Shown here piece by piece: positions 1 to 363 of a DNA stretch of 363 nucleotides. The notes under the pieces were generated by a model, which saw nothing but the letters and a program-made list of their open reading frames with translations, was not told where the DNA came from and searched no databases. The stretch is from NCBI RefSeq assembly GCF_003334385.1, contig NZ_QOWN01000191.1. One strand, 5' to 3'. This DNA is from Escherichia coli. Its GTDB lineage: Bacteria; Pseudomonadota; Gammaproteobacteria; Enterobacterales; Enterobacteriaceae. Made by a program: the position numbers and the translations under genes. How positions within the stretch are numbered: the stretch's first letter is position 1; each line of letters opens with the position of its first letter.

Positions 1-363
1 CTGCCTGATGGTGTGGAGACATACGGGGTGTGGGGACTCTCCCTGCCGTCACTGCGCCGTCGCCTGTTCCGCTGTGTCTCCATCCGGGAAAACACGGACG
101 GCACCTTTGCCATCACGGCAGTGCAGCACGTACCGGAAAAAGAAGCCATCGTGGATAACGGGGCCCGCTTTGAGCCGCAGTCAGGCACCCTGAACAGCGT
201 TATCCCACCGGCAGTGCAGCACCTGACGGTGGAGGTGAGCGCAGCTGACGGCCAGTATCTGGCGCTGGCGAAATGGGACACGCCGCGGGTGGTGAAGGGC
301 GTGCGCTTCAGTCTGCGCCTGACCAGTGGAAGCGGTGAGAACAGCCGCCTGCTGACCACCGCC
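1..363 (+). CDS. J: Internal fragment of a phage tail tip attachment / host-specificity protein (lambda gpJ-like central tail fibre protein); partial at both ends, frame +1
   Basis: Frame +1 has no stop codon across all 121 codons (the only TGA/TAA triplets fall in frames +2 and +3). Third-position GC is about 76% (92/121 by hand count), with CTG the dominant Leu codon, as in enterobacterial-type coding sequence. The translation contains RRLFRCVSIRENTDGTFAITAVQHVPEKEAIVDNGA and PPAVQHL...WDTPRVVKGV, which I recognise from memory as near-matches to the middle of lambda J (UniProt P03749). No start or stop is in the window, so gene boundaries are unknown. Not verified by a search. Confidence 0.85.
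   Translation, partial: MPDGVETYGVWGLSLPSLRRRLFRCVSIRENTDGTFAITAVQHVPEKEAIVDNGARFEPQSGTLNSVIPPAVQHLTVEVSAADGQYLALAKWDTPRVVKGVRFSLRLTSGSGENSRLLTTA
116..129. repeat. Copy 1 of a 14-bp perfect direct repeat (cggcagtgcagcac), intragenic and in frame; encodes (T)AVQH
   Basis: Exact string cggcagtgcagcac at 116-129 and again at 209-222. Flanking bases differ on both sides (a/c upstream, g/c downstream). Confidence 0.9.
205..363 (+). other. Probable N-terminal half of a fibronectin type III-like (Ig-like beta-sandwich) domain within the J-like protein
   Basis: Codons 69-121 read PPAVQHLTVEVSAADGQYLALAKWDTPRVVKGVRFSLRL... This follows the usual FN3 opening pattern: Pro-Pro start, a hydrophobic strand A (HLTVEV), a hydrophobic strand B ending in the conserved Trp (YLALAKW), then Pro (DTP). 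Lambda gpJ is known to carry FN3-like domains in its central region. The domain would continue beyond the window. Confidence 0.5.
209..222. repeat. Copy 2 of the 14-bp perfect direct repeat (cggcagtgcagcac), intragenic and in frame; encodes (P)AVQH
   Basis: Identical 14-mer, 93 bp (31 codons) downstream of copy 1, in the same codon phase (gca gtg cag cac in both). Confidence 0.9.

Follow-up and report, generated by a model that had tools for sequence, protein, structure and literature searches.

High GC content and a stop-free antisense frame in an internal fragment of a lambda-type gene J from Escherichia coli

A 363-nt stretch of Escherichia coli DNA, which is the whole of the DNA analysed here and is referred to as the window, raises two questions: where its high GC content comes from, and whether a stop-free frame on its antisense strand encodes a protein. 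The window contains 122 G, 111 C, 69 A and 61 T, giving a G+C content of 233/363 (64.2%). In frame +1, GC is 66.9% at first codon positions (81/121), 49.6% at second positions (60/121) and 76.0% at third positions (GC3, 92/121). A sequence-only reading of the window had counted 233 G or C nucleotides and 92 of 121 third positions by hand, and our recount gave exactly the same figures. We conclude that the window is almost certainly an internal piece of gene J from a lambda-like phage or prophage of Escherichia, read in frame +1, that its GC content has ordinary causes, and that the open antisense frame arises as a by-product of codon usage and is no gene. Composition, frame and context of the window are all as in known biology, and the result is in this sense already known.

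Frame +1 (positions 1 to 363, plus strand) matched the NCBIfam family NF049904 (lambda_TipJ) with E=5.7e-68 over profile positions 549-670 of 1163. The match scored 229 bits; the curated cut-off of this family is 1950 bits for the whole protein and is out of reach for a fragment of 121 residues. The J and tail-fiber families of PHROGs (PHROG 31, 1727 and 2148) matched the same frame with E=1e-43 to 1.5e-74. A PDB search with frame +1 returned the cryo-EM chains of lambda J, 8iyk_J and 9e7m, with E~1e-49 over residues 549-670. The window matched positions 20001-20363 of the two closest relatives (L001 and L002), in register with a gpJ CDS annotated at 18357-21887. The gpJ genes of the E. coli SW070917 prophage and of PhiR12_2_star are 3,531-nt CDSs of 1,176 codons, in which the window occupies codons 549-669. 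Variable columns among 13 homologues were also distributed as in a gene read in frame +1, with 75 at third positions versus 31 and 34 at the other two codon positions. The sequence-only reading had proposed that the coding strand be confirmed by searching with both stop-free frames; frame +1 gave the strong J matches described above and the minus-strand frame gave none, which favours frame +1. By sequence the window thus belongs to the gpJ family, the lambda-type tail tip attachment and host specificity protein, and its near-identical relatives point to the same family by domain architecture and operon context.

Within the window, positions 1 to 180 (plus strand) correspond to the stretch of J that leads from the Pfam Phage-tail_3 hub domain, located at residues 331-492 in the gpJ of the relative, to the first Ig-like domain. 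This part contains the strongly conserved motif ...RLFRCVSIREN...AITAVQHVPEKEAIVDNG, seen both in the alignment with lambda J and in the alignment of the homologues (A1). Positions 181 to 363 (plus strand) encode the N-terminal ~61 residues of the Ig_J domain (PF24421, 'Tip attachment protein J, Ig-like domain'; Pfam E=2.1e-40). Ig_J spans residues 609-712 in the gpJ of the relative, and residue 61 of the window is J residue 609. The full-length relative with 99.4% identity, named gpJ by PGAP, shows the Pfam series FNIII-A, Phage-tail_3, Ig_J, Ig_J_second and Phage_Tail_Tip. In L001 and L002, the genes are ordered tape measure (H), M, L, K, I and J, followed by tail fibre genes, and in lambda J is likewise placed in the tail operon after I and ahead of the lom or side tail fibre genes. 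Judging from these operons, the window would occupy the same position in its own genome. The putative function of J is that of a central tail fibre or receptor-binding protein, whose receptor-binding C-terminus lies outside the window.

Like lambda gpJ (NF049904; cryo-EM entries 8iyk, 8iyl, 8k35, 8xcg, 8xci and 9e7m), with whose residues 549-670 it is collinear, the window encodes a typical J segment. The two share 86 of 121 residues (71% amino-acid identity), and the close relatives of the window have the same domain order as lambda J and the same position after H-M-L-K-I. The loop after ARFE is one codon shorter in the window, and the C-terminal part of the segment reads SGSGENSRLL in the window versus VTADDGSERLV in lambda. 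The gpJ proteins of coliphages and prophages are closer, with SW070917 (WP_447311874.1), PhiR12_2_star (XSB41810.1), JLK-2012 and BP-4795 matching the full window at 95-99.4% DNA identity. The SW070917 gpJ has 1,176 amino acids and the same architecture as lambda-type J.

DNA matches to the window were found in 188 phage records, nearly all of them from Escherichia phages or Stx-converting phages (top identity 98.6%), and in 3,194 of 5,426 complete E. coli genomes (top identity 99.4%). The nearest relative is the SW070917 prophage, with 99.4% identity, an identical protein segment and two synonymous differences. Among the phage records and complete E. coli genomes searched, no record was 100% identical over the full window. 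Two sequence types can be distinguished among the J homologues in this segment, one at 92-99% identity and the other at ~75%. The type of the window is common in E. coli prophages and Stx phages and has ~75% DNA identity to the lambda type. From the 99.4% relative, it seems probable that the host and flanks of the window are likewise those of an Escherichia prophage.

The conserved core motif VQHVPEKEAIVDNG, with all third positions degenerate, was then searched for in one genome of each bacterial and archaeal species. Matches were restricted to E. coli, E. albertii, Escherichia sp. and four short or MAG contigs, and no higher-GC enterobacterial genus was among them; as the scan demanded an exact match to the peptide motif, it would overlook J genes of other genera that have diverged. 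The four contigs carry coliphage J DNA with 75-98% identity and belong to records of organisms unrelated to enterobacteria, namely Algoriphagus aestuariicola (L015, a 280-nt contig), a Collinsella MAG (L017) and a Clostridiales MAG (L018 and L019). Contamination or mis-binning is the most likely origin of the J DNA in these records.

The GC content of the window lies well above that of E. coli, as the sequence-only reading had stated: it is 64.2% compared with 50.7% for the host-flank genes potB-purB of the nearest relative. The first cause which that reading had put forward, GC-rich lambdoid tail genes, is directly upheld by the relatives. The late operon of L001, from terminase to tail fibre, has 57.6% GC beside the 50.7% flank. 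Its gpJ gene has 57.2% GC and a GC3 of 67.6%, and the gene as a whole has 57.2-57.3% GC in the two closest relatives and 57.1% in lambda. The comparison of the gene with its flanking genome, which the same reading had recommended and which we made in the relatives, thus places a 57% gene beside E. coli DNA of 50.7% GC. In lambda, measured directly on NC_001416, GC is 56.9% in the left 20 kb, 43.7% from 20 to 38 kb and 47.1% in the remainder (49.9% for the whole genome). A literature search on the GC content of the lambda left arm found nothing relevant.

The window exceeds even the average of its gene. Its total GC is reached by only 0.6-2.3% of the 363-nt windows of three J genes, and the window is therefore a local GC maximum of a 57% GC gene. 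GC3 is less unusual; 76% is reached by 26-31% of 363-nt windows in the closest J genes and lies within the ordinary spread along gene J. We calculated the GC content expected for the window protein at 61.4% under gpJ codon usage, 57.8% under host-flank usage and 53.5% under uniform usage, compared with 64.2% observed. About 4 of the ~7 points of excess over the gene average are accounted for by amino-acid content and ~3 by G or C at third positions. The window protein is richer in Leu, Val, Arg, Ser, Pro and Ala, and poorer in Ile, Met, Asp, Lys, Gln and Asn. Since the window is a local GC peak and part of its excess is amino-acid content, 64% overstates the GC content of gene J. The peak recurs in each homologue examined and is a stable feature of this part of J. 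Among the 11 annotated homologues, whose DNA identity runs from 99% down to ~74%, the homologous segment has 62.1-64.0% GC without exception, lambda being one of them with 62.1%. In further Escherichia and metagenome contigs it has 60.4-63.4%.

These observations bear on two other explanations of the GC content. One, the second cause offered by the sequence-only reading, is that the gene has adapted to a higher-GC enterobacterial host such as Klebsiella or Enterobacter (~55-57% GC). The 57% GC of whole J is numerically equal to that of such hosts, but every one of the closest relatives (98-99.4% DNA identity) comes from an E. coli chromosome or a coliphage, the flank of the nearest relative has 50.7% GC, and the same segment reaches 62% in lambda itself. 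The species scan for the exact peptide motif returned only Escherichia and probable contaminant contigs; because the J segment was found there only in Escherichia, a higher-GC host is not needed, and we consider it highly improbable. The other explanation, that the peak is a mosaic segment newly imported into J from a GC-richer phage lineage, has in its favour that J genes are visibly mosaic here, in IMG/VR contigs and in the two sequence types, and that by GC the window ranks among the top 1-2% of J. Both sequence types and lambda nevertheless have the peak at this position, with 62-64% GC throughout, and it is therefore old and not specific to one lineage. Conserved amino-acid content, moreover, accounts for over half of the GC by which the window exceeds the gene average. 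Recent import is accordingly very unlikely as well, if marginally less so than a higher-GC host.

On the minus strand, the frame with codons at plus-strand positions 360-362 down to 3-5 (positions 3 to 362, 120 codons) has no stop, as in frame +1; this agrees with the frame described in the sequence-only reading. The other four frames of the window have 2-6 stops each, including two stops in the in-register antisense frame. In L001 and L002 the open antisense run extends to 209 codons from stop to stop, at window coordinates -189 to 443. Each antisense codon consists of position 3 of a sense codon and positions 1-2 of the next one, so that both frames have their wobble positions in common. For a stop to appear in this wobble-sharing frame, TTA, CTA or TCA must straddle a codon boundary on the plus strand. 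This can happen only ahead of a Tyr codon (TAY), if the preceding codon ends in T or C, or ahead of a His or Gln codon (CAN), if the preceding codon ends in T. Such potential sites number 8 in the window, none of which makes a stop (0/8), and T-ending codons number 14 out of 121. With few potential stop sites and rare T-ending codons, the antisense frame is stop-free passively.

How often would such a frame be open by chance? The antisense frame was open in 12.8% of shuffles of the codon order of the window and in 27.8% of synonymous resamplings with gpJ codon usage, in which any antisense frame was open in 38.8%. With host-flank usage it was open in 9.8% of resamplings, and in mononucleotide shuffles in 4.9%. 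The openness of the frame is thus no more than chance given codon usage. Antisense runs of at least 209 codons occurred in 8.7% of codon shuffles of whole J, which puts the 209-codon run at the 91st percentile, unremarkable yet not typical. The sequence-only reading had called the open frame expected for the antisense of GC-rich coding DNA. Its status as a by-product was upheld; 'expected' is slightly too strong, and 'common' more fitting, for a frame open in about one quarter to one third of equivalent sequences.

Other genes of the late operon also have long antisense runs, of 291 codons in the tape measure gene and 316-386 codons in the tail fibre gene. In lambda J (L003, 15505-18903), a stop-free run of 705 codons was seen in the in-register antisense frame, which has 0.4 stops per 100 codons, and in lambda L the in-register antisense frame is open over the full length. 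Such in-register openness agrees with the scarcity of the codons TTA, CTA and TCA in the GC3-rich late genes.

The antisense frame was not conserved among the homologues. In 8 of 11 annotated homologues, some of them at 94-96% identity, it is broken by a stop, through changes that are synonymous in the sense frame. In JLK-2012 (96.4% identical), the antisense stop results from one GGC->GGT change at window position 252 that is silent in J. Stx2a phages and lambda are among the homologues with a stop, and further antisense stops were found in L012, L013, L014, L016, L019 and L020. With stops in 8 of 11 homologues and a chance of openness of 13-28%, the frame is not kept open beyond what sense codon usage gives. 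The antisense translation of the window had no match in PHROGs or NCBIfam at E<=1, and the 209-residue antisense product of the nearest relative had none in Pfam (E<=10) or PDB (E<=1). A consensus scan of L001 19600-20700, which is weak evidence, found no sigma-70-like promoter on either strand. Amino-acid changes in the two frames were 3 vs 4, 6 vs 9 and 7 vs 9 in the three comparisons; since the wobble positions are common to both frames, neither these counts nor the periodicity of substitutions can separate the frames well. The case against antisense coding is built on non-conservation, absence of homologues and chance levels.

According to the summary in PMC3454372, Merino (1994) and Silke (1997) describe long antisense ORFs as a frequent outcome of codon usage. 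The window resembles the shadow ORFs of that summary in having a stop-free antisense strand over G/C-rich third positions, and its open frame can be reproduced from sense codon usage alone. It differs in the frame concerned: classical shadow ORFs lie in the in-register frame (-1) and arise through rare TTA, CTA and TCA codons, whereas the open frame of the window is the wobble-sharing one. Mir et al. (2012) argue that long out-of-register antisense ORFs exceed the codon-usage expectation genome-wide and that some may be coding (PMC3454372), and by their argument statistics alone do not settle a coding role. A real overlapping antisense gene inside J could thus claim the 209-codon open frame of the closest relatives, the view of Mir et al., and the fact that its wobble positions coincide with those of J, an arrangement that tolerates dual coding better than any other. 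It is opposed by the stops in most homologues, the empty searches of all four databases, the promoter scan, and the chance levels of 28% for the window and 8.7% for the long run. Equal or longer antisense runs also occur across the late operon, of which the 705-codon run in lambda J, in another frame, is an example. We find such a gene barely credible, and the same holds for the narrower proposal that the 209-codon frame encodes a young, lineage-restricted overlapping protein in the J sublineage of the window, to which we attach next to no weight.

In the preferred reading, that of a J fragment with ordinary composition and a non-coding antisense frame, three contributions to the GC content add up. 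In lambdoid phages, the head-tail (late, left-arm) operon as a whole has ~57% GC and ~68% GC3, which places it 6-7 points over the ~51% of its E. coli host and well over the early and accessory regions of the phage. The amino-acid composition of the window alone lifts the expected GC to about 61% under the codon usage of the gene, and third positions somewhat richer in G or C than the gene average (76% vs 68%) supply the rest. The stop-free antisense frame is a passive consequence of the sense codon usage. That lambdoid left-arm genes are GC-richer than the E. coli host has long been known, and GC3-rich genes tend to carry long antisense open frames. Our finding restates the contrast between the left-arm structural genes and the host. 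It also bears on annotation. On short fragments ORF length alone fails to pick the coding strand, a caution against ORF-only gene calls that we retain from the sequence-only reading, and local GC is a poor guide to host GC, as a gene of 57% GC, carried by a genome of 51%, here peaks at 64%.

Several smaller features were noted in the window and its homologues. No inverted repeats were found in the window, and an Rfam scan of it gave only a chance-level match (14.3 bits vs a gathering score of 50 bits, E=0.71). Terminator-like matches of a hairpin and T-run numbered 5 in L001 19600-20700, 1.1 kb of J coding sequence, compared with 1.0 +/- 1.1 in shuffles. Of the five, one falls within the window, on its minus strand (L001 20097-20114, window-equivalent 97-114). 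All are weak consensus matches within the coding region of J.

The J genes in two IMG/VR contigs (L012 and L013) have 94.2% overall identity to the window and are identical to it only at positions 121-240. Their differences are clustered shortly upstream of that stretch, at window-equivalent positions 39-54, 78-79 and 112-120, and the run at 39-54 alters the peptide. The two contigs carry clearly mosaic, recombinant J alleles, as expected of J genes. In L018 (2697-2968), window positions 1-161 and 248-363 adjoin and positions 162-247 are apparently missing, which suggests a deletion of ~86 nt in J. As ~86 nt is not a multiple of three, the J gene of this record is either disrupted or an assembly artefact. 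The J gene of phage PhiR29_2 (L009) has a 2-nt deletion relative to all other homologues at ~2300-2345 (A1 columns 305-306), which shifts the J frame, and is annotated as two overlapping CDSs at 354-2345 and 2323-3750. The deletion could be a sequencing error, or J could be a pseudogene or have a frameshift site here.

The window also contains a 14-nt exact direct repeat, CGGCAGTGCAGCAC, at positions 116-129 and 209-222, with a spacing of 93 nt (31 codons). Allowing for mismatches, the repeat extends over 116-136 and 209-229. A repeat as long as this was present in 0.17% of shuffles of the codon order of the window. Both copies encode AVQH, in the contexts ITAVQHVPEK and PPAVQHLTVE. The repeat could have originated as a structural motif, an old micro-duplication or a gene conversion. 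The AVQH pair also occurs in lambda J, 32 codons apart, and is conserved as peptide.
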